The notes: generated by a model from the letters alone, not told the origin. A stretch of DNA of 64,000 nt from an uncultured bacterium (GCA_964634215.1 CAZWKR010000006.1:79607-143606), one strand, 5' to 3'. Numbered from the stretch's first letter, positions 7,049 through 60,285 are shown. Program-made: numbers and translations.

Positions 7049-7984
7049 TTACAATCCTGTTTCTTCTACTACTGATGCAACATGATCCACCGTGTTTTTA
7101 AGTGCGGCTTTTTCATCATCGGTCAAATCAATTTCAAGGATCTTTTCGATACCGTCACTACCTATAACACACGGAACACCAATAAAGTATCCGTTAACAT
7201 CATATTCACCTTCACATAGTGCTGCGGAAGGAATTACGCGTTTTTTATCTTTAAGATAAGATTCTACCATTTCCATAATCGATGCAGCAGGGCTAAAGAA
7301 CGCACTGCCATTTCCAAGTAGTTTAACGATTTCAGTACCGGCTTCGCGTGTGCGTTTTTCAATAGCCTCGATCTTTTCTTTGGATAAGAGCTTATCGATA
7401 GGAACTCCACCAACTGTTGCCAATCTTGAAAGCGGAACCATAGTTGGTCCATGTCCACCAAGAACAACACAGGACACGTCTTGTGCTGATAGTCCGGTTT
7501 CCATCGCAATAAATGCGCGGAAGCGGCCTGAGTCTAAAGCACCTGCCATTCCAACAACTCTATTTTTTGGAAGTCCACTGATCTTGTGAAAAGCATATAC
7601 AATAGCATCAAGCGGATTGGAAACCACGATCACAAATGCATCGGGTGCATATTTTTTTACATTGTTGGCGACATCTGTAATGATTCCCAAATTAACAGAA
7701 AGTAGGTCATCACGGGTCATTCCGGGCTTTCTTGGAACACCGGCTGTAATAACTACAACATCAGAACCTTCAATATCTTTGTAATCACTGGTTCCTGTGA
7801 TATTTGCATCATATCCGTCATGTGGTCTCAGTTCCATAATATCCAATGCTTTACCTTTCACCATTCCTTCAACTTGCGGAATATCAAATACTACGATATC
7901 ACCTAGTTCCTTTTGAGTACCAATTAGTGCGAGTATTCCACCAATTTGCCCACCGCCAATTAAGGCGATTTTTTTTCTTGCCAT
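7049..7984 (-). CDS. mdh: malate dehydrogenase (LDH-like family)
   Basis: 311 aa. Rossmann 'KIALIGGGQIGG', substrate loop 'ITAGVPRKPGMTRDDL', 'VLGGHG'. Confidence 0.9.
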   Translation of the reverse strand: MARKKIALIGGGQIGGILALIGTQKELGDIVVFDIPQVEGMVKGKALDIMELRPHDGYDANITGTSDYKDIEGSDVVVITAGVPRKPGMTRDDLLSVNLGIITDVANNVKKYAPDAFVIVVSNPLDAIVYAFHKISGLPKNRVVGMAGALDSGRFRAFIAMETGLSAQDVSCVVLGGHGPTMVPLSRLATVGGVPIDKLLSKEKIEAIEKRTREAGTEIVKLLGNGSAFFSPAASIMEMVESYLKDKKRVIPSAALCEGEYDVNGYFIGVPCVIGSDGIEKILEIDLTDDEKAALKNTVDHVASVVEETGL

Positions 7985-8000
7985 AATAAATTCTCCTATT

Positions 8001-9272
8001 TTATGCGTTTTCTTTTATCCATTCGGCAGTGATTGATTTCGGTCGAGTTATCGGCATACCTAATGCACGGTTGATAACCATTTGTGAAACCATACCCATC
8101 GCACGTGAAATACTGAATAGTACAGTATAGAAACTGAATTCGGTCATACCAAAATGATATAATAATGAACCGGAAGCTGCATCAACATTTGGCCATGGAT
8201 TTTTTGCTTTACCTTGTTCTTTTAATACATTTGGTACAACATCGAATAGATCACTAACGATATCAAATACAGGGTCACCCTTGATATGTTCTCTACCAAA
8301 ATTAATGAATGCTGTAAATCTAGGATCAGGGCAACGCAATACCGCATGACCATATCCCGGAACAACACGACCACTATTTAGACGATCCCACACGAATTTA
8401 CTTAATTCCTCTTGTGATGGTGAACCACCAAAATGCTCTTCAATTTCTAATACAAATTTGAGGCATTCTTGATTTGCGAGCCCGTGTAGTGGTCCGGCAA
8501 GTCCGTTTAATCCAGCGGATACCGCATAATATGGATCTGACAATGCTGACGCAACCGTAAGTCCACTAAATGCACTAACGTTTCCACCTTCATGATCACA
8601 ATGCAGCATGAGATATAGGCGCATCAATTTTTTTAACAGTCCGTCAGGATCATCAATCCCAAGCATGTGAGCAAAATTCGCACCCCAATCCAAATTTTTA
8701 TCAGGTTCGATGAGAGCACCTTTATCGAAACGAATTCGATAAACTCCAGCTCCCAATGCTGGTAATTTTGCAACTAATCGGATAGCATCATCTAACGTAG
8801 CTTTCCAATAATCTTGTTTTTGTAATCCTTTATCATATTGTTTTCTAAACTCAGATTCTTTTTCCATAACTAATATAGCTGCATTAAACATCACCATTGG
8901 ATGTGAGTCTTTAGGCATAGCCTTTAATACATCCCACACATATTGTGGTACTTCTGCATGCTCGGATAAATGTAATTGTAGATCTTTAAGAGCATCTTTA
9001 TCCGGTAGATCACCGGTCAACAATAGATGGAATACCTCTTCGGGAAGAATATCAGTTATATCTAATAATGGTCTGCCTCTAATTATCAGACCGGAATCTG
9101 CTGAAACAGCTGATGTATCACAGACCAAGCCTTTTACACCACGCATTCCACCATAAGCTTGTGCGACTGTTACATTACTAATAACCTTGTCGCCCTTTTC
9201 TTCAAGGAGTTGTTTCGCTTCATATCTCCAATCGGGTATTTTTTTACTTAACGTTTCTAATATTTTTGACAT
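8001..9272 (-). CDS. gltA: citrate synthase, eukaryote-like type
   Basis: 423 aa. 'HCDHEGGNVSAF...ASALSDPYYAVSAGLNGLAGPLHGLANQE' and 'PGYGHAVLRCPDPR' closely resemble mitochondrial citrate synthase motifs as I recall them. 16 nt upstream of mdh. Confidence 0.9.
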   Translation of the reverse strand: MSKILETLSKKIPDWRYEAKQLLEEKGDKVISNVTVAQAYGGMRGVKGLVCDTSAVSADSGLIIRGRPLLDITDILPEEVFHLLLTGDLPDKDALKDLQLHLSEHAEVPQYVWDVLKAMPKDSHPMVMFNAAILVMEKESEFRKQYDKGLQKQDYWKATLDDAIRLVAKLPALGAGVYRIRFDKGALIEPDKNLDWGANFAHMLGIDDPDGLLKKLMRLYLMLHCDHEGGNVSAFSGLTVASALSDPYYAVSAGLNGLAGPLHGLANQECLKFVLEIEEHFGGSPSQEELSKFVWDRLNSGRVVPGYGHAVLRCPDPRFTAFINFGREHIKGDPVFDIVSDLFDVVPNVLKEQGKAKNPWPNVDAASGSLLYHFGMTEFSFYTVLFSISRAMGMVSQMVINRALGMPITRPKSITAEWIKENA

Positions 9273-9457
9273 ATTAACCTCTTATTATTAATTAGAAAAA
9301 GCAATTAGTGAATATTAAGAACCAGGTATGTGCAGTGCACAAAACGCAACTTCTTAATCAATAAAAATTCATTGGGCACAGTTAAAAATAAAAACGAAAA
9401 GAATTATTTGCTAATTAATTCATACAAAATTAATTATATCAAACAATCTATATATTG

Positions 9458-9601
9458 TTATTTTTTAATCGGTTTTTTTACTTTACGAACACTGTTACTC
9501 TTGCAAGCTGGACATGCACGTTCCATAGGAATTTTACGGTCATACGGGCCGGTAAATTCATGTCCACAGCGCAAGCATTTAAAATCAACTATTTCAGCCA
9601 T
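9458..9601 (-). CDS. FmdB-family zinc-ribbon protein (47 aa)
   Basis: Below the ORF-track cutoff. Hand translation: MAEIVDFKCLRCGHEFTGPYDRKIPMERACPACKSNSVRKVKKPIKK, with a CxxC...CxxC pattern. Starts 16 nt after the hdrA stop on the same strand. Confidence 0.65.
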   Translation of the reverse strand: MAEIVDFKCLRCGHEFTGPYDRKIPMERACPACKSNSVRKVKKPIKK

Positions 9602-9617
9602 TATTTATTCTCAAATT

Positions 9618-12110
9618 TTATGCAGGCACACCTATCGCCGAATTATCGGATTTGGGTGTGATTTTTTTATTTTGTTTTTTTGCTCGTTTAGCTTCGGCTT
9701 TTTCTCGATCTTCTTTTAGAACCTTGATTGTGTGTTTAACTTCATTATCTGTGACATTTTTACGCATTTCATCAATATCTTTCATAGTTCGAGCCCACCT
9801 TTGTCCTTCAGCGGCACTTATCCATTCCATTTGTAAACGTTCTGGACGAATACCAAGTCTCTCCATTTTATCCCATAATTTTTCAACACGTTTTTGCGTC
9901 CAACGATTAGCATCAATGTAATGACAATCTGCAAAGTGACAGCCTGAGACAAGCACAATTGGTGCACCTTTTTCAAAGGCATGCAGTACAAAATCAGAAT
10001 CAACTCTACCACTGCACATCGTTCGGATAACCCTTTGAGATGTAGGATATTGCAATCTCGATAATCCTGCTAAATCAGCACCGGCGTATGAACACCAATT
10101 GCATGCAAATACTGTGACTTTATCCATTGGATTTTCATCTAAGATAGCATCAATCATAGTTGTGATTTGTGCATCCTCAAAATGTTTCATGGATAGTGCG
10201 TCAAAATTGCATTCTGCTGCACAAGTTCCGCATCCTTTACATAGAGCTTCTATCACTTCAGCAGGACTTCCGGCTTTTGCATCAGCTCCTTGAATAGCAT
10301 TGAACGGACAAACATTGGTGCAAATTCCGCAAGATGTACATAATTCGGTAAAGCATTCCGAGGTGATAGCTTCAATGTTTATCATATCCGAATTAAGCAA
10401 TACTTCTGCTCTAGCAACTGCGGCACTCGCTTGAGTTACACTGTCTTTTACATCTTTTGGAAATTCTGCGCAACCTGCAAAAAATACTCCACCTGTTGGT
10501 GCATCTACGGGTTTTAACTTTGGATGAGACTCCATAAAGAATCCATCTTCAGTTTTAGATAGAGTTAGCAGTTTTTGCACAGCTTCGGCATCACGTCTTG
10601 GAATAACTCCAACTGATAGAACTACCATATCAAAATTGTAATCTTTTACAGTATTTGCAACCGTGTCCTCTACAATTAGAGTGAGATTTTTTGTCTTTGG
10701 ATCCTCGAAGATCTCACCCGGTAGTCCTCGTATATATTGTACACCGGTTTTCTTACTTCTAATATATAAATCTTCAAATCCTTTTCCAAAAGCGCGAATA
10801 TCCATATAGAATACTGCAATTTCGGTATCCGGATAATGATCTTTTAACAATAAACTGTCCTTAACTGTATTCATGCAGCAAATATTACTACAATACGGAT
10901 TGCCGGTTTCTGAATGTGATCGTGAACCAACGCATTGAATGAAGGCAATCTTCTTGGGTACTTCTCTATCTGTTGGTCGGAAAAAATGTCCTTCCGTTGG
11001 ACCACCGGCAGAAATTAATCTTTCGAACTCCATGCTTGTGATGACATTTTCGTATTTGGTATAACCATATTCATCCATCTCGGTTGGATCGTAAACATCC
11101 ATTCCGGTAGCAACTATTACAGCACCAACATTGACTTCTATTATTTCATCCTTCATATCGAAATCGATACATTCTTTTTCACAAACATCCGCACATTTGC
11201 CGCATGCAATGGGATTATGTCCTAAACAATCATCATTATCTAAAATATAAACAGATGGAACTGCTTGGGGAAACGGCATATATATCGCTTTGCGAGATGA
11301 AAAACCCTGTTGGAATTCATCAGCTACAGCGACAGGGCAAACCTTTTCACATTCACCACACGCGTTGCAAACTGTTTCATCTACAAATCGTGCTTTTTTG
11401 CGAATTTTTACATTAAAATTACCGATATAACCGCTTACTTCTTCTACTTCGCTATATGTGTATAAATTAACATTGGGATGTCGACCGACATCCATCATTT
11501 TTGGTCCGAGTATTCATATGGAACAATCCATAGTGGGATAGGTCTTGTCTAATGTTGCCATTAGCCCACCAATGGATGCCTCCTTCTCAACCAAATTTAC
11601 TTTATAACCTGCATCTGCCAAATCAAGGGCGGACTGAATACCCGCCACACCACCGCCAATAACAAGAACTTCTTTGGTCATTGGTACTTTCGATTCTGTT
11701 TGCTCTTCCAATAATCTCGCTCTAGCGACCGATGACTTGACAATGTCTTTAGCTTTTTCAGTTGCACCATCATAATCATCTAAATGTACCCAACTGCAAT
11801 GCTCACGTATATTGGCCATTTCCATTAGATATGGATTTAATCCCGCCTCTTCAACACAATTGCGAAAAGTAGGTTCATGCATCCGGGGAGAGCAAGAGGC
11901 CACAACTACACGATTTAAATTGTGCTCTTTGATATATTTTTTTATTTCTTGTTGGCCGGGTTCTGCGCATGTATACTTATTTACAATTGAGCACACAACA
12001 TTAGGAAGTGTTTCTGCATGTTTAGCGACCTCTTGACAATCAAGCGATCCTGCAATATTACTTCCGCATTCGCAAACAAATACTCCTACACGTAAATCGT
12101 TTTCACTCAT
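9618..12110 (-). CDS. hdrA: HdrA-like flavoprotein fused to MvhD domain; selenocysteine-containing (in-frame UGA at 11514-11516)
   Basis: ORFs 11514..12110 and 9618..11498 share one frame (2493 nt). Read-through gives 'LDKTYPTMDCSI-U-ILGPKMMDVGRHPNV'. Also present: FAD motif 'VIGGGVAGIQSALDLA', an inserted ferredoxin 'CNACGECEKVCP', a C-terminal ferredoxin 'CTSCGICTNVCP'/'CKGCGTCAAEC', and MvhD 'FACNWCSYAGADLAG...MCSGRV...VSGCHFADCHY'. Confidence 0.8.
11476..11493 (-). promoter_or_regulatory. candidate bacterial SECIS hairpin for hdrA UGA
   Basis: Minus-strand RNA GGAUGUC-GGUC-GACAUCC: a perfect 7-bp stem with a GGUC loop, starting 20 nt 3' of the UGA. Confidence 0.6.
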
Positions 12111-12154: not shown

Positions 12155-13294
12155 TTATTCCATTCTCTCTAACACAACAGTAGAGATATCGCGAATATCC
12201 ATTTCATAATTATCTCTCACAACTTTATCTTTCATTGTACAAGTGAGATGGATATGACATTTGGGACATGCTACCGTTAAAATATCCGCTCCTGTTTCTT
12301 TTGCTTGTTTTAATCTTTCTTTTTGTATCCCTTTAGATGTGATATCACAATTCATCCAAGCACTCACACCGCAACATAGCGATTTTTTATCATGCTGCAT
12401 CATTTCATGAAAATGTTCACCGTCATTATGTTGTAAAACCTTGCGTGGTTCATCGTAAATACCCATATGGCGTCCTAGCCTACATGGGTCTTGAAATGTA
12501 ATATCTGTATCGGATTCTTTTAAATTAAGTTCATCAGTTGAGACCATATCAGCTAAAAACTGACTCATATGCATCAATTTTGGTTTTACCTTAAATCCAT
12601 GCTCAGGATATAAATTCATAAAGGCACTCATGCATTCGGCACAGGAAAATAAAATTGTTTTCGCGCCTCTTTTTTCAACTGATTCTATATTCTTTTCCGC
12701 GAGCATTTTAAAATTTTCCACATCACCATTCCATAAAAGGTCATGTCCACAACATCTCTCATCTGACATCACTACAGGAGTAACGCCAAGTTTGTTTAAA
12801 ATTTTAATGCTACTTTTTGCAGCATCAATTGTTGAAATAGCTAGATCATCAAAGAATACATCAAAATACGGGGCGCATCCTACATAGTATAATATGTCAC
12901 CATGATCACTTATCTTTAGATCATCAGTAATCCAATCGAGGCGATTTTGTTTAATATCTTTGGCAGTCATAGTTGTTTGTAGAAGTTCCATAGCCCCAGC
13001 GTGTGAGCATTTACCGTGAAAGCCGGAATCTTGTGCAGACGAACGAACAATCTGAGTTAGAGTACTATAGTCAATATTTGCCGGACAAACTGCATCACAA
13101 CGGCGACAAGTCAGGCAACTCCATAAATCATAATCGATATATAGAGAATCAAATTCATTGCGGATTGTTTTCGTTAACATTGAGCGAGGAGAGTACCGTT
13201 GGCTAAAAAGTGAAACAGGACAAACGGCAGTGCATTTTCCACATTCTAGACAACCATAGGCATTAGTGGCTTTAATTTGATCTACTAAATCCAT
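12155..13294 (-). CDS. HdrC/HdrB-like fusion (2x[4Fe-4S] + two CCG domains), HdrD-like
   Basis: 379 aa. 'CLECGKCTAVCP' and 'CLTCRRCDAVCP'. CCG motifs 'ERCCGHDL...FSCAEC' and 'DPCRLGRH...LCCGVSAW...ACPKCH'. Confidence 0.8.
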   Translation of the reverse strand: MDLVDQIKATNAYGCLECGKCTAVCPVSLFSQRYSPRSMLTKTIRNEFDSLYIDYDLWSCLTCRRCDAVCPANIDYSTLTQIVRSSAQDSGFHGKCSHAGAMELLQTTMTAKDIKQNRLDWITDDLKISDHGDILYYVGCAPYFDVFFDDLAISTIDAAKSSIKILNKLGVTPVVMSDERCCGHDLLWNGDVENFKMLAEKNIESVEKRGAKTILFSCAECMSAFMNLYPEHGFKVKPKLMHMSQFLADMVSTDELNLKESDTDITFQDPCRLGRHMGIYDEPRKVLQHNDGEHFHEMMQHDKKSLCCGVSAWMNCDITSKGIQKERLKQAKETGADILTVACPKCHIHLTCTMKDKVVRDNYEMDIRDISTVVLERME

Positions 13295-15606
13295 TATTTG
13301 AATTTCCTCGCATAGTTGTTAACCACTTCAACAAACTTATCAGTGTTTTTATCAGACACCGTGTCATACTCGATACGATTTTTGTCATATCCGAGCATGT
13401 GTGCCAATTGTTGTACTTTAGCATACGTTTCAGCAAATCGCTTTGCCCCAAACTCATAATGACATTCATCAGCGCTACATCCAACAACTAATACACCATC
13501 TGCACCTTCTTCAAGAGCACGTAAAAGGAAAGTCGATTCAATTCGTCCGGTACACATCGTTTGGATAAATATAAAATTTGTATTTTTGTATTTAGAAGTA
13601 TTTATATTTTCGAAATCAGTACCATTCCAATTACAGGAATAAACAATAATGTTCCGTTTTTTTGAATCAATATTTTTAAATTTGTACGATAACCATTCGG
13701 ACGTATATCTACACGGTTGAATTGCGCTCGATGGGCAAAATGTTACACACGTTCCGCACCCACGACATAATTCCGGATCAATTTGTGATACATATACCTC
13801 ATCATTTTTCTGTACTAATTGGCAGGCATCATATTCGCAAACGGTTACGCAATCTCCGCACCCACGACATAACTCTTCTTTTACATTTGGAATGTAACTA
13901 TTTAATTCGATTTGTACATCTTTGCCGGTAGCTGCTTTTAATGTCCCCAGCAAACTTCCGTTTCTTAAATCCTCACTTTTGAAATCGGGCGGTAAGCGTA
14001 ATACATAATCGTTTTGTCCGTTTGTACCATGTATAACTGATAAACCCTTATCACAATCAGACACACAAATAAAACATTCTCCGCACGGACCGCAACGTAA
14101 GCAACGTTGAGCTTCTGCAATTGCAGTTGCCTCATCAAACCCGTATTCAACTTCCTTGAAGCTGTTTTTCCTTTTTGAAACTTCTTGCATCGGTGTAGGT
14201 GTGCGCTTTATTTTGGGCTGATGCTTTAAATCGACTTTAACTTCAGTTTCAATTGGATTGGTTTTGTTATCGGACTGTTCAAGTGCCTCGCCATTAATAA
14301 ATCTTTCGATTGATGTAGCGGTTATGTGTCCTTGAGCAATAGCATCAATAACAGTATTTGGTCCTGTTACTGCATCACCACCGGCAAAAACGCCGGGGAT
14401 ATTAGTTGCCATAGTATTTTCATCGGCTACAAATGTTTGCCAGCGGGAAATGTCAATATTATGATCTTTTGGTAAAAATGACAGATCGGGCTCTTGACTG
14501 ATAGCAGGTATAATTATATCCGCTTCAATAATAAATTCAGAATTTTTGATAGGGATTGGTCTCGCACGACCGCTTTCATCGGGTTTGCCAAGTTTCATTT
14601 TTGTACATTCCAAACCGACAATTCTACCATTTTTACCAACTATTTTTGCCGGTGCTGCAAGATAATGTATTTTAATACCTTCATTTTCCGCTTCATCGAT
14701 TTCTTCATCCTCTGCCGGCATTTCTTGCCGTGTGCGACGGTAAACGATATTTACTTCAGAACCCAAACGCAAGGCAGTCCTGGCAGCATCAATAGCAGAA
14801 TTACCACCACCAATTACAATTACTTTTTCTCCCGGTTTTTTTGGTTTACCAAGATTTACTTCGCGTAAAAATGTTACGGCATCTAAAAATTCTTTATATT
14901 TATCTTCACCGGGAATCCCCAGTTTTTTACCAATATGAGCACCAATTGCTAAATAAACCGCATCAAATTCCTTTAATAATTTGTTATAATCCTGTTTGCC
15001 GGATATCTTTTTATTGGTTTTTATTTTCACGCCTAAATTGCGAATATAATCAATTTCGGTTTTTAGAATATCGCGTGGCATTCTATATGAAGGGATTCCG
15101 GCAATCAGCATTCCGCCAGGTTCAGATAATTCCTCAAAAATTGTAACATTGAAACCGCTTTTAACGAGATCATGTGCAGCAGTTAATCCGGCTGGACCTG
15201 AACCAATAACGGCAATTTTTTCTTTTCGAGTTCCTGCAGTTTTTTGTGGTTTAGGTATGGGATGATCTAATTCGTAATCAGCAACAAATCTTTTTAAGGA
15301 GCGAATGGCAACAGGAGCATCTATTTGATTTCGATTACATAAGGATTCGCATGGATGAGTACAAACCCTTCCGCAAATACCCGGCAATGGATTTTTTTCT
15401 CTCACAACATGTAAAGCTTCATGAAATTTACCAGCCGCGATCAATGAGACATATGCTTTAACATTAACACCTGCAGGGCAGGCTTCCATACAGGGAGATG
15501 GGTCAACTTTTCCTATTGGATACTGGACATTTGGTTTGTCGGAAAACGTAATAGTATTTTCATGTTTCCTGATAAAATTTTTAAATGTGTTGTCTGAAGT
15601 TCCCAT
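13294..15606 (-). CDS. GltD/NfnB/SudA-like NAD(P)H:FAD oxidoreductase fused to ferredoxin and MvhD domains
   Basis: 770 aa. 'CMEACPAG...CGRVCTHPCE', 'IAVIGSGPAGLTAAHDL', 'VIVIGGGNSAIDAAR', 'VFAGGDAVTGP'. Then 'CRGCGDCVTVCE' and 'CRGCGTCVTFCP'. C-terminal MvhD 'YSCNWNG...MCTGRIE...VVGCSADECHY'. Confidence 0.8.
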   Translation of the reverse strand: MGTSDNTFKNFIRKHENTITFSDKPNVQYPIGKVDPSPCMEACPAGVNVKAYVSLIAAGKFHEALHVVREKNPLPGICGRVCTHPCESLCNRNQIDAPVAIRSLKRFVADYELDHPIPKPQKTAGTRKEKIAVIGSGPAGLTAAHDLVKSGFNVTIFEELSEPGGMLIAGIPSYRMPRDILKTEIDYIRNLGVKIKTNKKISGKQDYNKLLKEFDAVYLAIGAHIGKKLGIPGEDKYKEFLDAVTFLREVNLGKPKKPGEKVIVIGGGNSAIDAARTALRLGSEVNIVYRRTRQEMPAEDEEIDEAENEGIKIHYLAAPAKIVGKNGRIVGLECTKMKLGKPDESGRARPIPIKNSEFIIEADIIIPAISQEPDLSFLPKDHNIDISRWQTFVADENTMATNIPGVFAGGDAVTGPNTVIDAIAQGHITATSIERFINGEALEQSDNKTNPIETEVKVDLKHQPKIKRTPTPMQEVSKRKNSFKEVEYGFDEATAIAEAQRCLRCGPCGECFICVSDCDKGLSVIHGTNGQNDYVLRLPPDFKSEDLRNGSLLGTLKAATGKDVQIELNSYIPNVKEELCRGCGDCVTVCEYDACQLVQKNDEVYVSQIDPELCRGCGTCVTFCPSSAIQPCRYTSEWLSYKFKNIDSKKRNIIVYSCNWNGTDFENINTSKYKNTNFIFIQTMCTGRIESTFLLRALEEGADGVLVVGCSADECHYEFGAKRFAETYAKVQQLAHMLGYDKNRIEYDTVSDKNTDKFVEVVNNYARKFK

Positions 15607-15626
15607 AAAATGAATTTTGATTTATT

Positions 15627-16163
15627 TTAATTTTTCAGTGATTTTCCGAAGTTGTAACCTTTTTCTAGTGCTTCAATATTGGTATCTAAAAATCGGTCAG
15701 GAACTGACCCAGGTAATGCCTTTTTCATTGCGTCAAGACTAACAACATCTGTCATTGCGGTAAAGAATCCAACCATTACAACGTTCGCAAAAATGCGATT
15801 TCCCATTTCTTCAGCAATTCGGGTAGCGGGTACTGAGTACAGTTTAACATCCTTGCGAACCGTTTTGGGTTTTACTAGGTCAGAGTCTGTGAGAACTATG
15901 CTGCCTTTTACAGGGTCACCGATAAATTTTTCATAAGCTTCTTGTGACATCGACACTAAAATTTGCGGTGCAACAATATATGGATATAAAACCTTATCGT
16001 TATCAATTACAACCTGTGCAGAGCACGCTCCACCGCGAGCTTCTGGTCCAAAACTTTGTGTTAGTGTAGCAAATTTACTATCAAATATTGAGGCTGCTTT
16101 TCCAATCAGCATTCCTGATTTTATAATTCCCTGTCCTCCAAAACCTGAAAATCTAATATCCAT
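15627..16163 (-). CDS. 2-oxoacid:ferredoxin oxidoreductase gamma subunit
   Basis: 178 aa. 'IRFSGFGGQGIIKSG' and 'GPEARGGA', typical of OFOR gamma. Confidence 0.85.
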   Translation of the reverse strand: MDIRFSGFGGQGIIKSGMLIGKAASIFDSKFATLTQSFGPEARGGACSAQVVIDNDKVLYPYIVAPQILVSMSQEAYEKFIGDPVKGSIVLTDSDLVKPKTVRKDVKLYSVPATRIAEEMGNRIFANVVMVGFFTAMTDVVSLDAMKKALPGSVPDRFLDTNIEALEKGYNFGKSLKN

Positions 16164-17068
16164 TATTTGGTTCCTTTATATGGAATGTATTTGTCACCTA
16201 ACTTGTTTTTTAAGAATTTGTCTCGGCTTGTATAGAAATCGGGTTTGTCCTTATCAACAAATTTTCCAACAATGATCTCTTTTTGATAATCGATGTCAAT
16301 ATCTTTTGTATTTGCGCCATGCTGTATTTTTGCTGTATCATGATAAAATCGCATTAGATCAAGCCCCGATCCAAGACGGTTTCTCCTGGCATAAAGAGTT
16401 GGGCATGGAGCGATAACTTCAATAAATGAAAATCCTGGTTTCACGAGTGCCTCTGCAATCGATTTTGTCGCTCTGCGAATATGTAATGATGTCCAACGCG
16501 CTACATAAACAGCTCCACACGATTCTGCTAAATATGGTAAATTAAATGGAAATTCGTAAGCGCCAAAAGGTGCTGTGGAAGCGTTAGCTTCTTGAGGTGT
16601 CGTAGGACCTGCTTGGCCACCGGTCATTGCGTAATTAAAATTGTTTATACAAATAATAGTTAGATTCATATTTCTACGAGCTGCATGGATAAAATGATTT
16701 CCTCCAATTGCAGCTATATCACCATCTCCGCTTATTACCGCAACTGTCATCTCGGGATTTCCTAGAGATAATCCGGTTGCAAATGGTATTGCTCTACCAT
16801 GAGTAGAATGAAATGAATCTAGTCTTAAATATCCCGCTGCTCTACCCGAACAACCAATTCCAGAAACTACACCAACTTTATCACGATCGAGACCCGATTT
16901 TTGCAAACCGGCTATAAAAGCTGTTAAAACAGTTCCAATACCACAAGTTGAACACCAAATATGCGGCAGACGTTCCGTTCGCAAATAGTCTTGCATCGGA
17001 TGTTTCATTGGTTCAGGAGATTTTGGAATTTTTAAAGTACTTGTAGTTGGTGCTGTAATCTCGCTCAT
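16163..17068 (-). CDS. 2-oxoacid:ferredoxin oxidoreductase beta subunit (TPP-binding)
   Basis: 301 aa. Cys ligands 'WCSTCGIG' and 'GIGCSGR'. TPP motif 'SGDGDIAAIGGNH...NNFNYAMTGGQ'. Confidence 0.9.
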   Translation of the reverse strand: MSEITAPTTSTLKIPKSPEPMKHPMQDYLRTERLPHIWCSTCGIGTVLTAFIAGLQKSGLDRDKVGVVSGIGCSGRAAGYLRLDSFHSTHGRAIPFATGLSLGNPEMTVAVISGDGDIAAIGGNHFIHAARRNMNLTIICINNFNYAMTGGQAGPTTPQEANASTAPFGAYEFPFNLPYLAESCGAVYVARWTSLHIRRATKSIAEALVKPGFSFIEVIAPCPTLYARRNRLGSGLDLMRFYHDTAKIQHGANTKDIDIDYQKEIIVGKFVDKDKPDFYTSRDKFLKNKLGDKYIPYKGTK

Positions 17069-18225
17069 TTTACACCTTTCTTAATTGCTTTTAAAATATC
17101 GTTAGGATCGTGTACCCAACCACCTGCGTGTGGTACATGAATTGTTTTTGTCTTTCCAGCCACACATCTTTCGACTTCAAGAGAAATCTGACCAAGGTTG
17201 ATTTCAGGAACAACAAATGCTTTTATTTTGCTGGCAAGTTTGCTAATTAATTTTTCAGGAAATGGCCATACAACTATTAGGCGAATTGTACCAACTTTTA
17301 TTCCGGCTGCTCGAGCATCTTGTACGGCTTTTAACGCGACACGAGATGTTATTCCATACGAAATAACTATTACTTCAGCCCCATCAACTTGATCTTCTTC
17401 TAGTAGTCGTATTTTTTCTTCATTTTTAAGAATTTTATCAACTATATGTCTAACATTCTTATCTTGGGCCTCTGAATTGAGCGTTGGATATCCTCTTTCA
17501 TCATGTGTTAAGCCCGTTAGATGTATATTATAACCTTCACCAGCTTTTATCATCGGAGCGATTTCTCCTTTACCATTGAAATTAAATGGTCGATAATCTT
17601 CTTTTTTACCATTATAATATTTACGTGGTACAATTTCGATTTTGTCGGCATCAGGTATGACAACTTTTTCTGTCATATGTCCAACACATTCATCCATCAT
17701 GAACATAACTGGGACACGCCAAATCTCAGATAAGTTGAATGCTGTAATTGTGAGATCAAAACATTCTTGAGGAGAATTTGGGGACAGGGCAATGACTTCA
17801 TAGTCACCATGAGAACCCCAACGGGCTTGCATCATATCGGCTTGAGCGGTAAGTGTGGGTAGTCCGGTTGATGGACCTCCGCGTTGAACATTAACTATAA
17901 CACAGGGCGTTTCAAGCATTACCGCAAGTCCGATGTTTTCCATCATTAGTGAAAATCCAGGACCTGATGTAACTGTCATTACTTTTGGACCTCCCCATGC
18001 GGCTCCAATTATTGCAGCCATAGATGCAATCTCGTCTTCCATTTGAATAAACATTCCGCCGACTAATGGGAAACGTTCCGCAATTCTTTCTGCTACTTCT
18101 GTTGATGGCGTTATGGGATATCCTGCTAAAAATCTACATCCTGCCGCTATTGCACCTTCGCCACAAGCGTGATCACCATCAATATAGTGATTCCCCGTTG
18201 CTACTCCAACTGGATCTGCTTTCAT
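17065..18225 (-). CDS. 2-oxoacid:ferredoxin oxidoreductase alpha subunit
   Basis: 386 aa. 'AGYPITPSTE' and 'VNVQRGGPSTGLPT'. Confidence 0.9.
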   Translation of the reverse strand: MKADPVGVATGNHYIDGDHACGEGAIAAGCRFLAGYPITPSTEVAERIAERFPLVGGMFIQMEDEIASMAAIIGAAWGGPKVMTVTSGPGFSLMMENIGLAVMLETPCVIVNVQRGGPSTGLPTLTAQADMMQARWGSHGDYEVIALSPNSPQECFDLTITAFNLSEIWRVPVMFMMDECVGHMTEKVVIPDADKIEIVPRKYYNGKKEDYRPFNFNGKGEIAPMIKAGEGYNIHLTGLTHDERGYPTLNSEAQDKNVRHIVDKILKNEEKIRLLEEDQVDGAEVIVISYGITSRVALKAVQDARAAGIKVGTIRLIVVWPFPEKLISKLASKIKAFVVPEINLGQISLEVERCVAGKTKTIHVPHAGGWVHDPNDILKAIKKGVK

Positions 18226-18527
18226 GATTTTGCCTCTTTTTTTAGAACATCGTCAATGTCGGGATGGGTCGATTTTCCTGCAACTACAAATATCGAAAAA
18301 TCAGGACAAATCATTTCGCAAAGTGTGCAGTTAACGCAAGCTCCTTGTTTGATAACTACTGGGTAATGATATCCTTTCCGATTGAAATCTTTAGATAATG
18401 CTAAAACATCTTTTGGGCAATATTCGATGCAGAATTCACAACCCTTGCACTGTTCAATATCGATATGCACATCGCCGTGTGGTACTTCAATAGTATTTAT
18501 ATCTAATGGGGCGCGCCAGTAACTCAT
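18222..18527 (-). CDS. 2-oxoacid:ferredoxin oxidoreductase delta subunit (2x[4Fe-4S] ferredoxin)
   Basis: 101 aa. 'CKGCEFCIEYCP' and 'CVNCTLCEMICP'. The gene order D-A-B-C matches Helicobacter oorDABC (2-oxoglutarate-type). Confidence 0.85.
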   Translation of the reverse strand: MSYWRAPLDINTIEVPHGDVHIDIEQCKGCEFCIEYCPKDVLALSKDFNRKGYHYPVVIKQGACVNCTLCEMICPDFSIFVVAGKSTHPDIDDVLKKEAKS

Positions 18528-18548: not shown

Positions 18549-18818
18549 TTATTGGACGAAATTTTCGCCTTCTTCTTGTTTAACTTTTAAATAAAATTCA
18601 CAGACATCGCAACTTTCAACCATTTTCAGTTGGATGCATGTCGGTTCACCATCTTGATAAGTTCCTGAAACATGCCAACAATATCTTCCACCAAACATTC
18701 CACCATTAATACCATTAAAAGATTTATATTGTACAGAGTGACATTTTCCATATTTGTCGACATTTGCTCCACCGTGTTCTCTACCGCATTGGTTAAAATC
18801 CCAACAGTTCATTTTCAT
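18549..18818 (-). CDS. stand-alone Cys-rich two-CW-domain-like protein
   Basis: 89 aa. 'NCWDFNQCGRE...GGRYCWHVSGT...CDVCEF' resembles the two-CW domain pattern (NCW..CGR / GR.CW) as I recall it. 21 nt upstream of the OFOR delta gene. Confidence 0.6.
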   Translation of the reverse strand: MKMNCWDFNQCGREHGGANVDKYGKCHSVQYKSFNGINGGMFGGRYCWHVSGTYQDGEPTCIQLKMVESCDVCEFYLKVKQEEGENFVQ

Positions 18819-30639: not shown

Positions 30640-32487
30640 GTGCCCAAAACAAAAATTAAACACGTAGACCATGTAGTAATTCGTTTTGCAGGAGATTCCG
30701 GTGATGGAATGCAATTAACCGGTTCACGCTTTACTGAATCTACAGCGATATTTGGAAATGATCTTAGCACCTTACCTGACTATCCTGCGGAAATACGTGC
30801 ACCAGCCGGTTCATTGGCGGGTGTAAGTGTTTTTCAATTACATTTTAGTTCAAAAGATATACATACTCCTGGTGATCAACCGGATGTATTAGTGGCAATG
30901 AATCCGGCAGCTCTTAAAGGTCATTTAGCCGATTTGGAACCCCATGGAATAATTATCGCAAATAAGGATGCGTTTAGCAAAAAAAACTTACATTTAGCTG
31001 GTTATGAATCAAATCCATTAGAAGATGGCTCGTTGGAAGATGAGTATGAAGTTCATTCCATTAGAATGACAAACTTAGTTACCAAAGCATGCAAAAATAT
31101 TGATCTCTCCTCAAAAGATGTTGAAAGAACTAAGAATATGTTTGCTCTAGGTCTCTTATTTTGGATGTACAACCGGAGCACCGATTCTACGATACAATGG
31201 TTGCAGAAAAAATTTAAAACTAAACCGGCGATTGCAGAGGCAAATATACGTGCTTTAAATGCCGGTTATAATTACGGTAATACAACTGAAATATTTACCG
31301 TACGTTATACTGTTGAAAAGGCAACTTTACCATCAGGTAAATATCGCAACATTAATGGTAATTATGCGATTAGTTTAGGATTGCTAGCTGCATCTGAGAA
31401 ATCGGGATTACCACTCTTTTTTGGTGGATATCCGATTACTCCTGCTACAGAAATATTACATTTTTTAGCTGGCTACAGAAATTTTGGTGTAAAAACATTC
31501 CAAGCAGAGGACGAGATTGCCGGTGTCTCCGCCGCAATTGGCGCTTCTTTTACCGGTAATTTAGCTTGCACAGCAACCTCAGGACCGGGAATGGCGCTAA
31601 AAACTGAAGCGATTGGTCTAGCTATAATGTCTGAATTACCGTTGGTTATAGTCAATGTTCAACGTGGTGGACCAAGTACCGGCCTGCCAACTAAGACAGA
31701 GCAATCCGATCTTTTCCAAGCAGTTATGGGAAGAAATGCTGATGCACCATTACCTGTTATTGCTCCATCTACGCCCGGAGATTGTTTCTATGCAGCATTT
31801 GAAGCAAGTCAGATTGCAATTAAATATATGACTCCTGTTATTGTTCTTTCGGATGGATATCTTGCCAATGGTTCTGAACCGTGGCCAATACCCAAAATAG
31901 ATGAGTTACCTAAAATTGATGTAAAATTCGAAACCATGTATAATGGAAAGGATAAATATCTACCGTATCAAAGGGATAAGCAAACTTTAGCTCGTCCATG
32001 GGCAATCCCGGGAACTCCCAATCTCGAACATCGCTTAGGCGGCTTAGAGAAAGAAGATGTTACAGGCGATGTTAATTATGAAGCCGACAATCATCATTTA
32101 ATGACGACACTTAGAGCACAAAAAATAAAAAATATTGCCAATGATTATCCTCCAACAAAAGTATTCGGAAAAGATAACGGAGATATGCTGATTCTAACTT
32201 GGGGAAGCACATTTGGTCCCGGTCGTGTTGCTACTGAGAGATTGCACAAAGAAAATCTTAAAGTAAGTCATGTCCATTTACGGTATATGAATCCGCTACC
32301 AATTGATTTGGGTGGAATTTTAAAAAAGTTTAAACATATTCTAATTCCAGAAATAAATACTGGCCAACTTAGTACTATAATTAGAGCTAAGTATTTAGTA
32401 GATGCCGAAGGTCTAAATATAGTAAGGGGTCGCCCGATTCGAGCAAGTGTGATCGTTAATCGTGTCAAGAAAACTTTAGGAATATAA
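30640..32487 (+). CDS. korA: 2-oxoglutarate:ferredoxin oxidoreductase alpha subunit (fused gamma-alpha, two-subunit type)
   Basis: 615 aa with a GTG start. 'VIRFAGDSGDGMQLTG', 'GGYPITPATE', 'VNVQRGGPSTGLPTKTEQSDL'. Confidence 0.9.
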   Translation: MPKTKIKHVDHVVIRFAGDSGDGMQLTGSRFTESTAIFGNDLSTLPDYPAEIRAPAGSLAGVSVFQLHFSSKDIHTPGDQPDVLVAMNPAALKGHLADLEPHGIIIANKDAFSKKNLHLAGYESNPLEDGSLEDEYEVHSIRMTNLVTKACKNIDLSSKDVERTKNMFALGLLFWMYNRSTDSTIQWLQKKFKTKPAIAEANIRALNAGYNYGNTTEIFTVRYTVEKATLPSGKYRNINGNYAISLGLLAASEKSGLPLFFGGYPITPATEILHFLAGYRNFGVKTFQAEDEIAGVSAAIGASFTGNLACTATSGPGMALKTEAIGLAIMSELPLVIVNVQRGGPSTGLPTKTEQSDLFQAVMGRNADAPLPVIAPSTPGDCFYAAFEASQIAIKYMTPVIVLSDGYLANGSEPWPIPKIDELPKIDVKFETMYNGKDKYLPYQRDKQTLARPWAIPGTPNLEHRLGGLEKEDVTGDVNYEADNHHLMTTLRAQKIKNIANDYPPTKVFGKDNGDMLILTWGSTFGPGRVATERLHKENLKVSHVHLRYMNPLPIDLGGILKKFKHILIPEINTGQLSTIIRAKYLVDAEGLNIVRGRPIRASVIVNRVKKTLGI

Positions 32488-33519
32488 ATGGCTGATATTA
32501 AAAATGTTAAATCTCTAGATTTAAATCGTATGGACTTTGTAACAGACCAAACTGTAAAATGGTGTCCGGGTTGTGGAGATTATTCAATCTTAAAACAAAC
32601 TCAGCGAATATTACCTGATCTGGGCATACCAAAGGAAAATTTTGTATTTATTAGTGGTATAGGTTGTTCAAGTAGATTTCCATATTATATGAATACTTAC
32701 GGTTTTCATACAATTCATGGTCGGGCAGCTGCAATTGCTTCAGGAGCGAAACTCGCTAATCCTGATTTATCCGTTTGGATAGTTACAGGTGATGGAGATG
32801 CCTTATCAATCGGTGGAAATCATACAATTCATTTAATGCGCAGGAATCTTGATATAAACATTTTATTGTTTAATAATAGAATTTATGGCTTAACAAAAGG
32901 TCAATATTCACCAACATCTGAATTAGGAAAAGTAACTAAATCAACACCAATGGGTTCTTTGGATAGACCGTTTAATCCAACGTCATTAGCGTTAGGTTCT
33001 CAAGCAACCTTTGTAGCGCGTACTATTGATCGTAATCCAAAACATATTCAATCAATTTTGAAAAGGGCTCATCAACATTATGGTACTTCCTTTGTCGAAA
33101 TTTATCAAAATTGCGTGATTTTTAATGATGGTGCATTTGATGACCTTACAAACAAGAAAATATTGTCAGACAATATTATACAGCTGGAGCATGGTCAACC
33201 AATGATGTTTGGTAAAAATCATAATCTTGGAATACACCTTGATTGTAACGTTCCAAAAATCATTGATCTGGATAAGGACAATAATGTAAGCATCGATGAT
33301 ATTCTTGTACATGATGAGAAAGATATTGTTATTGCATCACTGTTAAGTGCTTTTACTTATCATGAGTATTTTCCAACACCTGTTGGAATAATTTATGCTG
33401 TTGATGAACCTGTTTATGAAGATTTACTGCGAGATCAAATTAAATTAGCAATAGAGAAACAAGGAAAGGGTGATATTCAAGCACTTCTAGGTTCGGGAAA
33501 TACCTGGGAAGTAAAATAA
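32488..33519 (+). CDS. korB: 2-oxoglutarate:ferredoxin oxidoreductase beta subunit
   Basis: 343 aa. 'WCPGCGDYSIL', 'GIGCSSRFPYY', 'TGDGDALSIGGNH'. The start abuts the korA stop. Confidence 0.9.
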   Translation: MADIKNVKSLDLNRMDFVTDQTVKWCPGCGDYSILKQTQRILPDLGIPKENFVFISGIGCSSRFPYYMNTYGFHTIHGRAAAIASGAKLANPDLSVWIVTGDGDALSIGGNHTIHLMRRNLDINILLFNNRIYGLTKGQYSPTSELGKVTKSTPMGSLDRPFNPTSLALGSQATFVARTIDRNPKHIQSILKRAHQHYGTSFVEIYQNCVIFNDGAFDDLTNKKILSDNIIQLEHGQPMMFGKNHNLGIHLDCNVPKIIDLDKDNNVSIDDILVHDEKDIVIASLLSAFTYHEYFPTPVGIIYAVDEPVYEDLLRDQIKLAIEKQGKGDIQALLGSGNTWEVK

Positions 33520-47512: not shown

Positions 47513-48481
47513 GTGAAATTTATCTATTTAATGGAGAATGAGCGTTCAGTATCTCCACATATAAAACCTGTAATTAAAGAACGAATTAAACCATTCATTC
47601 CACCTCGTCCATCAAGGCCAATAAAGTATATTCCTCGGGTTGAAAAAGGTGTAAGGGATTATTGTAAACTATTGGGATTAACTCGAGAACCATTTTCTAT
47701 GGCTCCTGAACCTGATTTCTTTTATCAATCCAAACAGCATCGAGAGTGTCTTAATCGATTGGAAATTTCATTACGACTTAATCGTGGTTTGCATGTTGTA
47801 GCCGGTGGTATAGGTACCGGTAAAACTGCTATATCTAGATTATTGTTGGATCGATTTACTGACCATGAGGGCGATTATACATTCTTTTTAATTCTCAATC
47901 CTACTTGGCGCAACAATCAAGAATTCTTAATGCATCTTAAAAAGATGTTTGATATCCGCGATGAATCAAATCTAATTACTGACATGATGAATCAAATCGA
48001 ACATTTTTTAATTGATTATACTACAAAATACAGTAAGCGAATTGTGATGATTATTGACGAGGGACAAAAGATGGGACCAAATCAGCTTGAAATCGTTCGA
48101 TCTTTGCTAAATTTTGAAACAAATAGTATGAAGCTTATTCAATTTGGTATCTTTGCCCAGCCAGAATTTATTGATACCCTAAATGCTATGGAAAATTTTA
48201 AAGATCGAATTACATATATGTTTAATTTAAACAATATGGATGATGAAGATACAAGAGGTTTAATTGACCATCGACTAAGTATAGCAGGCTTGCCTAAAGA
48301 AAGAGAGCTATTTACTGAAAATGCAAAAAACCTAATTTATAAATATACAAGAGGATTCCCTCGAAAGATTATAGTCACTTGCCACAATTTACTCATCGAT
48401 ATGCTAATCACAGGTAAATCAAAAGTTGATGCTGATTTAGTTTTTAAATTTACTCAGCAAAATAATTTGATATATGAGTAA
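47513..48481 (+). CDS. ExeA/GspA/MshM-like AAA ATPase
   Basis: 322 aa. Walker A 'GGIGTGKTAISR', Walker B 'VMIIDEGQ'. The GTG start is uncertain (alternative ATG at 47531). Confidence 0.75.
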   Translation: MKFIYLMENERSVSPHIKPVIKERIKPFIPPRPSRPIKYIPRVEKGVRDYCKLLGLTREPFSMAPEPDFFYQSKQHRECLNRLEISLRLNRGLHVVAGGIGTGKTAISRLLLDRFTDHEGDYTFFLILNPTWRNNQEFLMHLKKMFDIRDESNLITDMMNQIEHFLIDYTTKYSKRIVMIIDEGQKMGPNQLEIVRSLLNFETNSMKLIQFGIFAQPEFIDTLNAMENFKDRITYMFNLNNMDDEDTRGLIDHRLSIAGLPKERELFTENAKNLIYKYTRGFPRKIIVTCHNLLIDMLITGKSKVDADLVFKFTQQNNLIYE

Positions 48482-50891: not shown

Positions 50892-51484
50892 GTATGAAAA
50901 ATTATAAAACCATTTTCACAGTATTAATCTCTTTACTAACTATAGTAATTTTTTATTGGTTTTTCTACGTACTAGTAATTAATAGAAATAATTATAGTAA
51001 AATCAAGGAAGATCTAATTGAAGCTGAAAATAATTTTAAGCGGTTAAGTAGTGAACGTGCAAATTTTACAACAATAAAAAATACTAGAGAAAAACAGATA
51101 CTTAATTATGATACATTAAGAGTCCATATACCATTAAAAGTGAATGTTAAAGGATCTGATTCTTATATAGAAACGTTAGATATTATTCATCAAGTTGCAG
51201 GAAGAAATAATGTTATCATAGATATCTTTAAACCAATTTTGGTAAATACTTTTCCACAAATTGAAGTTAGTAGCAGACTCCTAGAAAAGAAAATTGAAAG
51301 ATACTTGGTAGAAATGGAATGTAACGGCGATTATATATCGATCGGCAAATTTTTTCAAGAATTACAAAAACATGAAAGGTTCATCAATTTATTGAAATTT
51401 AATATTGAAACTGAATTTGGTATTGAAGGTGGATTGAATTGTAAAGTATTACTTTATACTTATATATTTTCGGAATATAACTAA
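50888..51484 (+). CDS. PilO-like pilus alignment protein
   Basis: 198 aa. N-terminal TM, coiled coil and C-terminal alpha/beta region. Position after pilMN. Confidence 0.5.
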   Translation: MSMKNYKTIFTVLISLLTIVIFYWFFYVLVINRNNYSKIKEDLIEAENNFKRLSSERANFTTIKNTREKQILNYDTLRVHIPLKVNVKGSDSYIETLDIIHQVAGRNNVIIDIFKPILVNTFPQIEVSSRLLEKKIERYLVEMECNGDYISIGKFFQELQKHERFINLLKFNIETEFGIEGGLNCKVLLYTYIFSEYN

Positions 51485-53818: not shown

Positions 53819-53835
53819 AATAGTGGAGATAGACT

Positions 53836-54891: not shown

Positions 54892-54896
54892 ATTCG

Positions 54897-56003: not shown

Positions 56004-56012
56004 ATAAGAAGT

Positions 56013-57148: not shown

Positions 57149-57164
57149 TAATTAATTGTGAGAT

Positions 57165-58832: not shown

Positions 58833-58842
58833 GTATAATAAT

Positions 58843-60228: not shown

Positions 60229-60285
60229 ATTATATAAAATTGTTTTATAATTGAATGTTCAAAATAACTACATAAATATATAAAA

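Follow-up and report, generated by a model that had tools for sequence, protein, structure and literature searches.

The window considered here is a stretch of 64,000 nucleotides from an uncultured bacterium (GCA_964634215.1, CAZWKR010000006.1:79607-143606). Its subject is a seven-gene operon on the minus strand which contains the genes of a four-subunit 2-oxoglutarate/2-oxoacid:ferredoxin oxidoreductase (KOR), of a heterodisulfide reductase (Hdr) and, between both, of a 770-residue fusion protein. The genes follow each other in the order korD, korA, korB, korG, fusion gene, hdrCB, hdrA and are overlapping or closely spaced throughout. The kor genes, directly upstream of the fusion gene, overlap or nearly abut, with a gap of about 20 nt between korG and the fusion gene, and the TAA of the latter overlaps the ATG of hdrCB (junction TAATG). 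The features of the locus are as follows.

13294-15606, minus strand: 770-residue fusion protein with NADPH head, iron-sulfur linker, ferredoxin domain and MvhD domain (open reading frame, Pfam, NCBIfam, AlphaFold2)
15265-15498, minus strand: its N-terminal iron-sulfur domain, residues 37-114 (Pfam Fer4_20, 1.2e-23; mapped onto T. maritima NfnB, 4ylf_B)
14329-15219, minus strand: its flavin adenine dinucleotide (FAD) domain with embedded NADP(H) domain, residues 130-426 (Pfam Pyr_redox_2, 1.3e-35)
14053-14208, minus strand: its permuted segment, residues 467-518 (homology to the NfnB N-terminus; six invariant cysteines)
13717-13884, minus strand: its 2x[4Fe-4S] ferredoxin domain of the HdrA C-terminal type, residues 575-630 (Fer4 dicluster, about 1e-7 to 2e-9)
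13303-13650, minus strand: its MvhD/FlpD domain, residues 653-768 (PF02662, 1.7e-26)
12155-13294, minus strand: HdrC/HdrB fusion (HdrCB), 379 residues, with a Fer4 dicluster and two complete CCG domains (Pfam CCG, 3.8e-27 in 2 stretches; Fer4_8)
9618-12110, minus strand: HdrA-MvhD selenoprotein of the HdrA2 type, 830 residues (in-frame read-through of the UGA at 11514-11516)
11476-11493, minus strand: hairpin resembling a selenocysteine insertion sequence (SECIS), GGAUGUC-GGUC-GACAUCC, 23 nt after the UGA (fold and conservation)
15627-18527, minus strand: korD-korA-korB-korG, four-subunit KOR (Pfam POR_N, TPP_enzyme_C, POR, Fer4)
7049-9272, minus strand: citrate synthase and malate dehydrogenase, directly downstream of hdrA (Pfam)

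Domain composition of the fusion protein

Positions 13294 to 15606 form one uninterrupted ATG-to-stop open reading frame (ORF) of 770 amino acids on the minus strand, the stop-riddled plus-strand reading of the same interval being rejected. A reading made beforehand from the sequence alone (the sequence-only reading) had described the product as a three-module fusion of a GltD/NfnB-like NAD(P)H oxidoreductase, a 2x[4Fe-4S] ferredoxin and MvhD. This description was borne out by the ORF, by Pfam, in which Fer4_20, Pyr_redox_2, a Fer4 dicluster and FlpD/MvhD were all found, and by all motifs that had been quoted, the translation featuring IAVIGSGPAGL, VIVIGGGNSAID, CLRCGPCGECFICVSDC, CRGCGDCVTVCE, CRGCGTCVTFCP, YSCNWNG, MCTGRIE and VVGCSADECHY. 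All putative cluster-ligand cysteines (28/28) are invariant or nearly so among 69 homologues of 46-89% identity. Together with the domain matches, this conservation means that the domain makeup is not due to chance, and the fusion is confirmed as genuine, its domains having been parsed correctly. The AlphaFold2 model (predicted local distance difference test 88.5, predicted template modelling score 0.88) confidently predicts a single compact body. With the fusion sequence as query, PDB matches reached about 1e-104 for NfnB/NfnL and 1e-14 to 1e-19 for MvhD chains, and the NCBIfam model NF009410 'NAD(P)-binding protein' was matched with 547.9 bits (cut-off 516) by residues 19-520 only.

The best sequence and fold matches of residues 37-520 are NfnA of the Bfu-type NfnABC (9bov_A, 9n5u_A) and StnC (8oh5_C), at 1e-107 to 1e-127, whereas the head shares 41-43% identity and a TM-score of about 0.8 with the bifurcating NfnL/NfnB (5jca_L, 4ylf_B). 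By these comparisons, it is nearer to the non-bifurcating StnC/NfnA type, which it most resembles, than to the bifurcating NfnB. The residue alignment to T. maritima NfnB (4ylf_B) places a proximal [4Fe-4S] site at C43, C82, C86 and K105 and a distal one at C39 and C90 in the N-terminal domain together with C502 and C505 after the flavin domains. The five N-terminal cysteines are invariant among the 69 homologues. The sequence-only reading had located both dinucleotide folds and both iron-sulfur cysteine clusters in the N-terminal 450 residues or so, which holds for the folds (GSGPAG and GGGNSA), whereas the clusters are not complete there because of the position of C502 and C505. Instead of the glutamate ligand on the proximal cluster of NfnB (E117 in T. 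maritima), the fusion features Lys105, which aligns with Glu117 (RSLKRFVAD vs GRLERFVAD) as well as with Lys170 of StnC and is invariant in both alignments examined, including the 69-homologue set.

Residues 4-39 of NfnB and 8-42 of NfnL align to residues 467-502 of the fusion, and the N-terminal stretch of NfnB up to the first two distal-cluster cysteines is found at residues 467-505, behind the flavin domains. This arrangement is a circular permutation of the distal-cluster cysteines common to the fusion, StnC and NfnA. Just after C502xxC505 follows C508xxC511xxC514xxxC518, all six cysteines being invariant in the 69 sequences. As C508, C511, C514 and C518 remain after the distal-cluster ligands have been assigned, these four are predicted to bind one further [4Fe-4S] cluster. 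Y289-R290-R291 corresponds, in the alignment to NfnB, NfnL and StnC, to the YRR motif of NfnB and DsrL-2, which holds the 2'-phosphate of NADP(H) and serves as a marker for this cofactor (PMC7596348). For StnC, with Lys170 at the proximal cluster, the flavin was shown experimentally to be non-bifurcating (PMC10482914); in StnC and Bfu-type NfnA alike, the role of the FAD is NADPH oxidation and the supply of electrons to a bifurcating core distinct from it (PMC10482914; PMC11829005). By analogy, the FAD of the fusion head is probably not the bifurcating flavin.

The tail of the protein points to HdrA. Among PDB entries, the ferredoxin domain is best matched by the one at the C-terminus of HdrA (5odc_A, residues 555-638), residues 560-770 are colinear with the tail of the HdrA encoded nearby, which likewise consists of ferredoxin domain and MvhD (28% identity, E 2e-27), and the NCBIfam HdrA2 model matches residues 565-768 at profile positions 564-767. 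Judged by this homology, the tail and the corresponding C-terminal part of the neighbouring HdrA (ferredoxin domain and MvhD) are paralogues. Since the head matches StnC/NfnA and the tail matches that of HdrA2, the fusion is a chimera in which a StnC/NfnL-type NADPH head is joined to a copy of the tail of HdrA2.

The C-terminal MvhD domain recognized by the sequence-only reading is confirmed by PF02662 (93 bits, cut-off 22.3; profile positions 1-118/123) and by PDB matches to MvhD chains including 9sw2_D and 5odc_D. Its cysteines C658, C685, C710 and C715, which are invariant in the 69 sequences and align with those of the HdrA-fused MvhD, presumably bind a [2Fe-2S] cluster. Correctly recognized as well was the presence of two MvhD modules at the locus, the second being the C-terminus of HdrA (FlpD/MvhD, 1.7e-45). 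Both modules adjoin ferredoxin domains of one and the same kind, which makes an MvhD-MvhD bridge, formed head to head between the fusion and HdrA, an attractive hypothesis.

In the databases, orthologues of the fusion are named 'NAD(P)-binding protein' or 'FAD-dependent oxidoreductase' (NCBI). The JGI label 'formate dehydrogenase (NADP+) beta subunit' on the orthologues P0002, P0010, P0021, P0037 and P0119 is probably a mis-transfer, as the window has no gene for a catalytic subunit of formate dehydrogenase next to the fusion gene. Antisense ORFs of 85-129 residues on the plus strand (14494-14868, 14841-15146, 12630-12887 and 9330-9921), opposite the fusion gene, hdrCB and hdrA, were rejected as genes and regarded as shadow ORFs, their 'conservation' being explained by the conserved sense genes.

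HdrA as a selenoprotein and the HdrCB partner

hdrA was called as two ORFs of 198 and 626 amino acids, split at an in-frame TGA. For both pieces, scored separately, NCBIfam HdrA2 is the best match (311.4 and 846.5 bits; full-length cut-off 1100). Upon read-through, the protein aligns over its full length to the solved HdrA 5odc_A (825 bits) with selenocysteine (Sec) 199 opposite Cys197, and it features all domains of this solved bifurcating enzyme. In the obligate dimer, Cys197 contributes a ligand to the N-terminal cluster of the partner subunit (PMC9012536). The UGA lies within the motif DCSI-U-ILGPK, and the next five codons are conserved in frame. The SECIS-like hairpin is kept in 15 loci, where its GGUC loop is invariant and a change from U-A to C-G is compensatory; the minimum free energy of the single sequence is no better than that of shuffles (z = 0.01), and what supports the hairpin is conservation and covariation only. 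TGA occurs at the Cys197 position in every kor-linked HdrA examined, and TGT or TGC takes its place in HdrA homologues of other lineages. The alignment of the UGA with Cys197, the conserved downstream reading frame, the conserved hairpin and the cysteine codons in other lineages thus identify HdrA as one selenoprotein, and its reading as two genes was rejected.

In the kor-linked loci L002 (about 12172-12200) and L005 (about 12045-12075), the HdrA motif is MD-U-AI-U-ILGPR. Both cysteines of DCSxC are encoded there by TGA, 9 nt apart, the second TGA lying three codons upstream, before a single hairpin. A SelB gene (14159-16117, minus strand; Pfam Beta-barrel_SelB and WHD_3rd_SelB) is located directly after hdrA in L005. 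tRNA-Sec and sel genes, the latter covered by a partial Pfam survey, were not found in the 64-kb window, a result which is uninformative on the whole genome. The HdrCB protein encoded between the fusion gene and hdrA shows a TfrB/HdrC/DsrK-like match in NCBIfam.

Genomic context and distribution

A scan of one genome per species combined with contig look-ups resulted in a set of 86 loci, and tblastn with the window proteins revealed the order korDABG-fusion-hdrCB-hdrA in 20 of them. These 20 loci stem from Marinimicrobia, Fidelibacterota, Zixibacteria, Krumholzibacteriota, Acidobacteriota/Thermoanaerobaculia, Phycisphaerae/Planctomycetota, a deltaproteobacterium and unnamed bacteria. The kor-hdr operon with a selenocysteine HdrA is present in at least seven named bacterial groups. 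Across the kor-linked loci, HdrA is 61-93% and the fusion 38-86% identical, and hdrA lies two genes downstream of the fusion gene in the window and in 16 or more loci. The exact fusion protein and the close relatives of it belong to Marinimicrobia/Fidelibacterota. Its full architecture, covered from residue 30 or so to a point past residue 745, occurs in about 30 of the best 150 representatives (50% clustering) at 38-57% identity, some of these proteins being longer than the fusion. All-against-all ORF clustering of the 20 loci revealed no conserved thiol carrier or partner beyond the seven core genes.

The kor genes of the window matched OGOR_delta and a 2-oxoacid:acceptor oxidoreductase alpha model (569.6 bits, cut-off 411) in NCBIfam. 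Citrate synthase and malate dehydrogenase as neighbours are confined to close relatives (L007, L008, and partly L015, L020 and L023). The continuation of the operon into these two genes suggests a tricarboxylic acid (TCA) cycle run in the oxidative direction, with which KOR would make rather than consume reduced ferredoxin. A Pfam scan of the operon neighbours revealed neither an NfnA/NfnS (PyrK-like) gene nor NuoE/F genes; no GltB, DsrAB or FdhA gene is adjacent to the fusion, and the 64-kb window contains no dsr genes. Promoter and terminator scans gave the same counts as shuffled sequence and do not inform the limits of the operon.

Several relatives depart from this arrangement. The full-length but divergent homologues of L039 (4714-15663) and L073 (1480-10275), with 32-34% identity and no HdrA nearby, are accompanied by NuoE-, NuoF- and NuoG-N-terminal-like genes, HdrCB, an oxaloacetate-decarboxylase/pyruvate-carboxylase biotin subunit and a Fer2_4 plus Pyr_redox_2 flavoprotein. 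Both loci suggest that the MvhD-tailed NADPH module also serves Bfu-type partners. The protein P0127 (1146 residues) combines Fer4_20, Pyr_redox_2, Fer4 and FlpD with a C-terminal CCG domain of the HdrB type, and this fusion offers Rosetta-stone-type support for a contact between the fusion protein and HdrCB. In the kor-linked locus L002 (537-2824, minus strand), a canonical NfnAB pair (Fer4_20/Pyr_redox_2 and DHODB_Fe-S_bind) and a monomeric isocitrate dehydrogenase lie upstream of duplicated korAB. Thus, the fusion coexists with an ordinary Nfn and does not replace it.

Further genes of the window surround the operon. Just upstream of korD, an 89-residue cysteine-rich ORF (18549-18818, minus strand) matches the NCBIfam 'two-CW domain' at 4e-22 and nothing in Pfam; it stands outside the conserved module, as no loci but the five closest contain it. 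At 30640-33519 (plus strand), a second 2-oxoacid:ferredoxin oxidoreductase (OFOR) of the two-subunit type is encoded by a 615-residue ORF, in which POR-gamma and POR_N are fused, followed by a 343-residue ORF. Together with korDABG, the genome thus contains two different OFORs, as noted for tubeworm symbionts. An unrelated type IV pilus/type II secretion cluster (PilM-like, secretin, three T2SSE ATPases, T2SSF and a sigma-54 activator) occupies 47513-63968 (plus strand).

Relation to known systems

FlxABCD-HdrABC, as cited in two reports, is an established NAD(P)H-fed Hdr complex using the MvhD homologue FlxD (PMC5861303; PMC6315080). In Endoriftia, the Escarpia symbiont and Thioflavicoccus mobilis, korABCD is embedded in flxABCD-hdrABC and co-expressed with genes of the reductive TCA cycle, and bifurcation was proposed to feed the 2-oxoglutarate:ferredoxin oxidoreductase (OGOR) of this cluster (PMC6315080; PMC11636981). 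The system of the window resembles Flx-Hdr in its logic: a pyridine-nucleotide dehydrogenase supplies HdrA via iron-sulfur carriers and a homologue of MvhD, and HdrBC forms the high-potential exit. Nevertheless, Flx consists of four separate proteins, whereas the window encodes one polypeptide; besides, its HdrA contains a selenocysteine and an additional MvhD, HdrC is joined to HdrB in one protein, the genes are arranged in another order, and neither tfrAB nor aclAB is adjacent. The MvhD domain and the adjacency of hdrCB and hdrA are FlxD-like features. Separate genes for Flx-like flavoprotein or iron-sulfur subunits were not found in the operon by Pfam, which was used without a direct Flx sequence comparison; the domains recognized in the fusion and its operon neighbours are exclusively of the GltD, ferredoxin, MvhD, CCG and OFOR types. 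FlxA belongs to a flavoprotein family other than the GltD/NfnL fold. The fusion would thus work like Flx, but it is not a member of Flx.

With StnC of Sporomusa StnABC (8oh5_C) and the Bfu-type NfnA, the fusion shares the proximal lysine, the post-flavin distal cysteines and, presumably, the NADPH-oxidizing, non-bifurcating role. In these enzymes, however, the module sits in a NuoG/Fdh-like scaffold and feeds a HydBC-type flavin mononucleotide bifurcating core, whereas the head of the fusion is followed by the HdrA-type ferredoxin domain and MvhD, HdrA is its neighbour, and Pfam finds no NuoG/Fdh domain in it. NfnB/NfnL (4ylf_B, 5jca_L) are alike in fold, FAD and NADP(H) sites, YRR and two [4Fe-4S] clusters; they differ by Glu117 in place of Lys105 and by an N-terminal CxxC which in the fusion is found at 502-505, while the fusion lacks an NfnA/NfnS partner and carries about 330 extra C-terminal residues. 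DsrL has the same succession of an N-terminal 2x[4Fe-4S] part, FAD/NAD(P) domains, a linker of about 100 residues and a C-terminal 2x[4Fe-4S] ferredoxin, and its type DsrL-2 shares the YRR motif (PMC7596348). MvhD, the six-cysteine linker motif, the OFOR linkage and a window free of dsr genes set the fusion apart from DsrL, and the DsrL study excluded OFOR-linked DsrL-like genes without studying them (PMC7596348).

HdrL of Desulfobacterium autotrophicum (PMC2702500) and HdrA9-11 of ANME-1, an HdrA-NfnB type (PMC9012536), likewise combine an NfnB/GltD-like module with HdrA and an adjacent MvhD. Their module is located inside or beside HdrA, whereas the fusion is a separate subunit with a copy of the HdrA tail. 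Loci of this HdrL/HdrA-NfnB type were recovered with the same fusion query in Desulfobacterales and Dehalococcoidia, where the head module (query residues 29-518) either adjoins HdrA or forms part of it. The HdrA of the window itself is similar to HdrA2 of Methanosarcina acetivorans HdrA2B2C2 in being fused to MvhD and in having NCBIfam HdrA2 as best match. In HdrA2B2C2, however, F420H2 donates directly to HdrA2, CoM-S-S-CoB is the substrate, and neither an NADPH subunit nor a KOR linkage is present. This enzyme is bifurcating by experiment, and its bacterial homologues were predicted to use NADH and other disulfides (PMC5296606). For Zixibacteria RBG-1, Hdr, OGOR, POR and Nfn genes were reported in one cluster (PMC3903129). 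In the literature searched, no description of the exact fusion or of a Marinimicrobia Hdr-KOR module was found; a mention in the review of HdrA modules by Appel et al. (2021) is possible.

The sequence-only reading had called an NAD(P)H-input module wired to an Hdr docking domain unusual. This was overstated, as NAD(P)H-fed Hdr complexes with FlxD are known, NfnB-like modules in or near HdrA have been described, and the full architecture recurs among the best representatives; moreover, the head is StnC/NfnA-like and not NfnB. The system is no new kind of enzyme but a variant of the NAD(P)H-fed, bifurcating Flx-Hdr systems already known, with one polypeptide for the four of Flx. What distinguishes it is the StnC/NfnA-type module with an HdrA tail, the second MvhD, the obligatory selenocysteine, the fused HdrCB and the seven-gene order, which is kept in many phyla. 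The strict korDABG linkage and the selenocysteine of HdrA, both absent from the sequence-only reading, are more informative than the fusion itself.

Proposed electron path and alternative explanations

The type of the head, the HdrA-like tail, the full-length HdrA partner, the overlap with hdrCB, the conserved gene order, the fusion in P0127 and the Flx-Hdr precedent together argue for the fusion as an NADP(H) port. On balance, it is moderately probable that the fusion serves as the subunit which couples a soluble Hdr complex of the HdrA2 type, tied to the four-subunit KOR, to NADP(H). The wiring of an NAD(P)H module to Hdr via an MvhD-type adaptor, as already suggested by the sequence-only reading, is the reading best supported by synteny. 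The tie between Hdr and KOR is genetic and probably also physical, complex formation being deduced from synteny only.

In the proposed path, a hydride from NADPH would be transferred to the FAD of the GltD/NfnL-like head, from which the electrons would pass one at a time via the proximal (C43, C82, C86, K105) and the distal [4Fe-4S] cluster (C39, C90, C502, C505), the probable third cluster (C508-C518) and the two ferredoxin-domain clusters to the [2Fe-2S] of MvhD. The latter is predicted to dock on HdrA-MvhD, possibly on HdrA's own fused MvhD. The FAD of HdrA would split the electron pairs (bifurcation or confurcation): the uphill branch may lead via the inserted ferredoxin domain of HdrA to ferredoxin or KorD and to KOR, and the downhill branch via HdrCB to a disulfide or another high-potential acceptor. 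The predicted net reaction, 2 NADPH + Fd(ox) + RSSR' <-> 2 NADP+ + Fd(red) + 2 RSH (Fd, ferredoxin), would be reversible, and a single polypeptide would do the job of FlxABCD in Flx-Hdr. The organism of the window may run KOR oxidatively and move reduced ferredoxin into NADPH and the thiol/disulfide couple; in organisms with a reductive branch, the complex could drive 2-oxoglutarate synthesis from NADPH.

A farther-reaching version is doubtful: all seven gene products would form one integrated KOR-Hdr-NADPH supercomplex, in which low-potential electrons are passed on without free ferredoxin and the MvhD pair acts, head to head, as a symmetric [2Fe-2S]...[2Fe-2S] bridge joining two copies of one ferredoxin-MvhD tail. 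NADPH-driven bifurcation at the Sec-containing HdrA dimer would then give electrons to, or take them from, the 2-oxoglutarate synthase, as a bacterial counterpart of the methanogen assemblies of Hdr and formylmethanofuran dehydrogenase.

Several points weigh against the assignment of the fusion to an NADPH-fed Hdr complex. HdrCB also matches GlpC, LdhH and GlcF in NCBIfam, and CCG proteins can serve quinone-linked enzymes, too; no thiol-carrier gene is conserved in the neighbourhood across the 20 loci. As to the direction in vivo, the TCA genes hint at a KOR that makes reduced ferredoxin and does not consume it. For every family member, assembly into a complex would rest on synteny, the assignment does not account for the need for two MvhD domains, and the head would be non-bifurcating by analogy only, given its lysine ligand and its best homology. 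The full-length members L025 and L051 have no HdrA within 10 kb, and the homologues in L039 and L073 adjoin NuoE/NuoF-like genes instead of HdrA; accordingly, serving as an adaptor to HdrA is not the only role of the MvhD tail.

The proximity of the fusion gene to korG, in the same order in 20/20 loci, could also be explained by a KOR-bound NADP+ reductase, in which the ferredoxin domain of the fusion is fed by KorD/KOR, the head reduces NADP+ and MvhD is a side branch to Hdr for redox balance. KOR and fusion would then constitute a 2-oxoglutarate:NADP+ oxidoreductase, like OFORs which depend on pyridine nucleotides owing to an extra flavoprotein subunit; this idea is rather unlikely. DsrL-like genes 'immediately linked with' OFOR genes are common enough to have been explicitly excluded from the DsrL study (PMC7596348). 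The NADH-dependent phenylglyoxylate dehydrogenase is an OFOR relative in NCBIfam, with weak matches of KorA/B/G/D to Pad subunits, and the oxidative TCA cycle suggested by the downstream genes would need a sink for reduced ferredoxin. Nevertheless, such a reductase leaves unexplained why the four invariant MvhD cysteines, HdrCB and the Sec-containing HdrA are kept in every kor-linked locus. Moreover, direct transfer from ferredoxin to NADP+ wastes about 200 mV, and the complete bifurcating-type HdrA argues that this gap is used.

Still less probable is a second bifurcation site, i.e., a head FAD which bifurcates like NfnB of NfnAB, so that two bifurcating flavins would act in series. Such a two-site idea was raised for ANME-1 HdrA9-11 (PMC9012536), and the identity and TM-score to NfnL/NfnB as well as the NfnB-like cluster topology are in line with it. 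However, Lys105 invariantly replaces the glutamate of NfnB, as in StnC with its demonstrably non-bifurcating flavin, the best homologues are StnC/NfnA, a gene for an NfnA/NfnS (PyrK-like) partner is missing from the operon, and only one exit wire from the head flavin is evident. It is very improbable that the protein is a generic or stand-alone oxidoreductase (glutamate synthase small subunit, DsrL or 'formate dehydrogenase beta subunit') located next to hdr by chance. The generic or divergent names of orthologues and the relatives without nearby HdrA would fit this explanation, but the corresponding GltB, DsrAB or FdhA gene is not adjacent, all equivalog-level NCBIfam models score far below their cut-offs, the synteny with hdrCB and hdrA is kept across phyla at 38-86% identity, and the tail is a paralogue of the HdrA tail.

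Implications

If the fusion is indeed the NADP(H) port of a KOR-linked Hdr, a large and phylogenetically diverse set of bacteria (among them SAR406/Marinimicrobia, Zixibacteria, Acidobacteriota and Planctomycetota) would link NADP(H) to the 2-oxoglutarate step in the TCA cycle via a selenium-dependent bifurcating Hdr. Their redox and energy bookkeeping would change accordingly, either by recycling of the reduced ferredoxin from KOR or by an NADPH-driven, CO2-fixing KOR, and central metabolism would acquire a selenium requirement. Metabolic reconstructions probably miss the module, as the fusion is generically annotated or misnamed and HdrA is routinely split at the UGA. HdrA, HdrCB and the fusion would, furthermore, offer a compact three-protein model for the docking of donor modules on HdrA. 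Should the supercomplex exist in the abundant pelagic Marinimicrobia, a major heterotroph of the ocean would have selenium-dependent bifurcation as an integral part of its TCA cycle.

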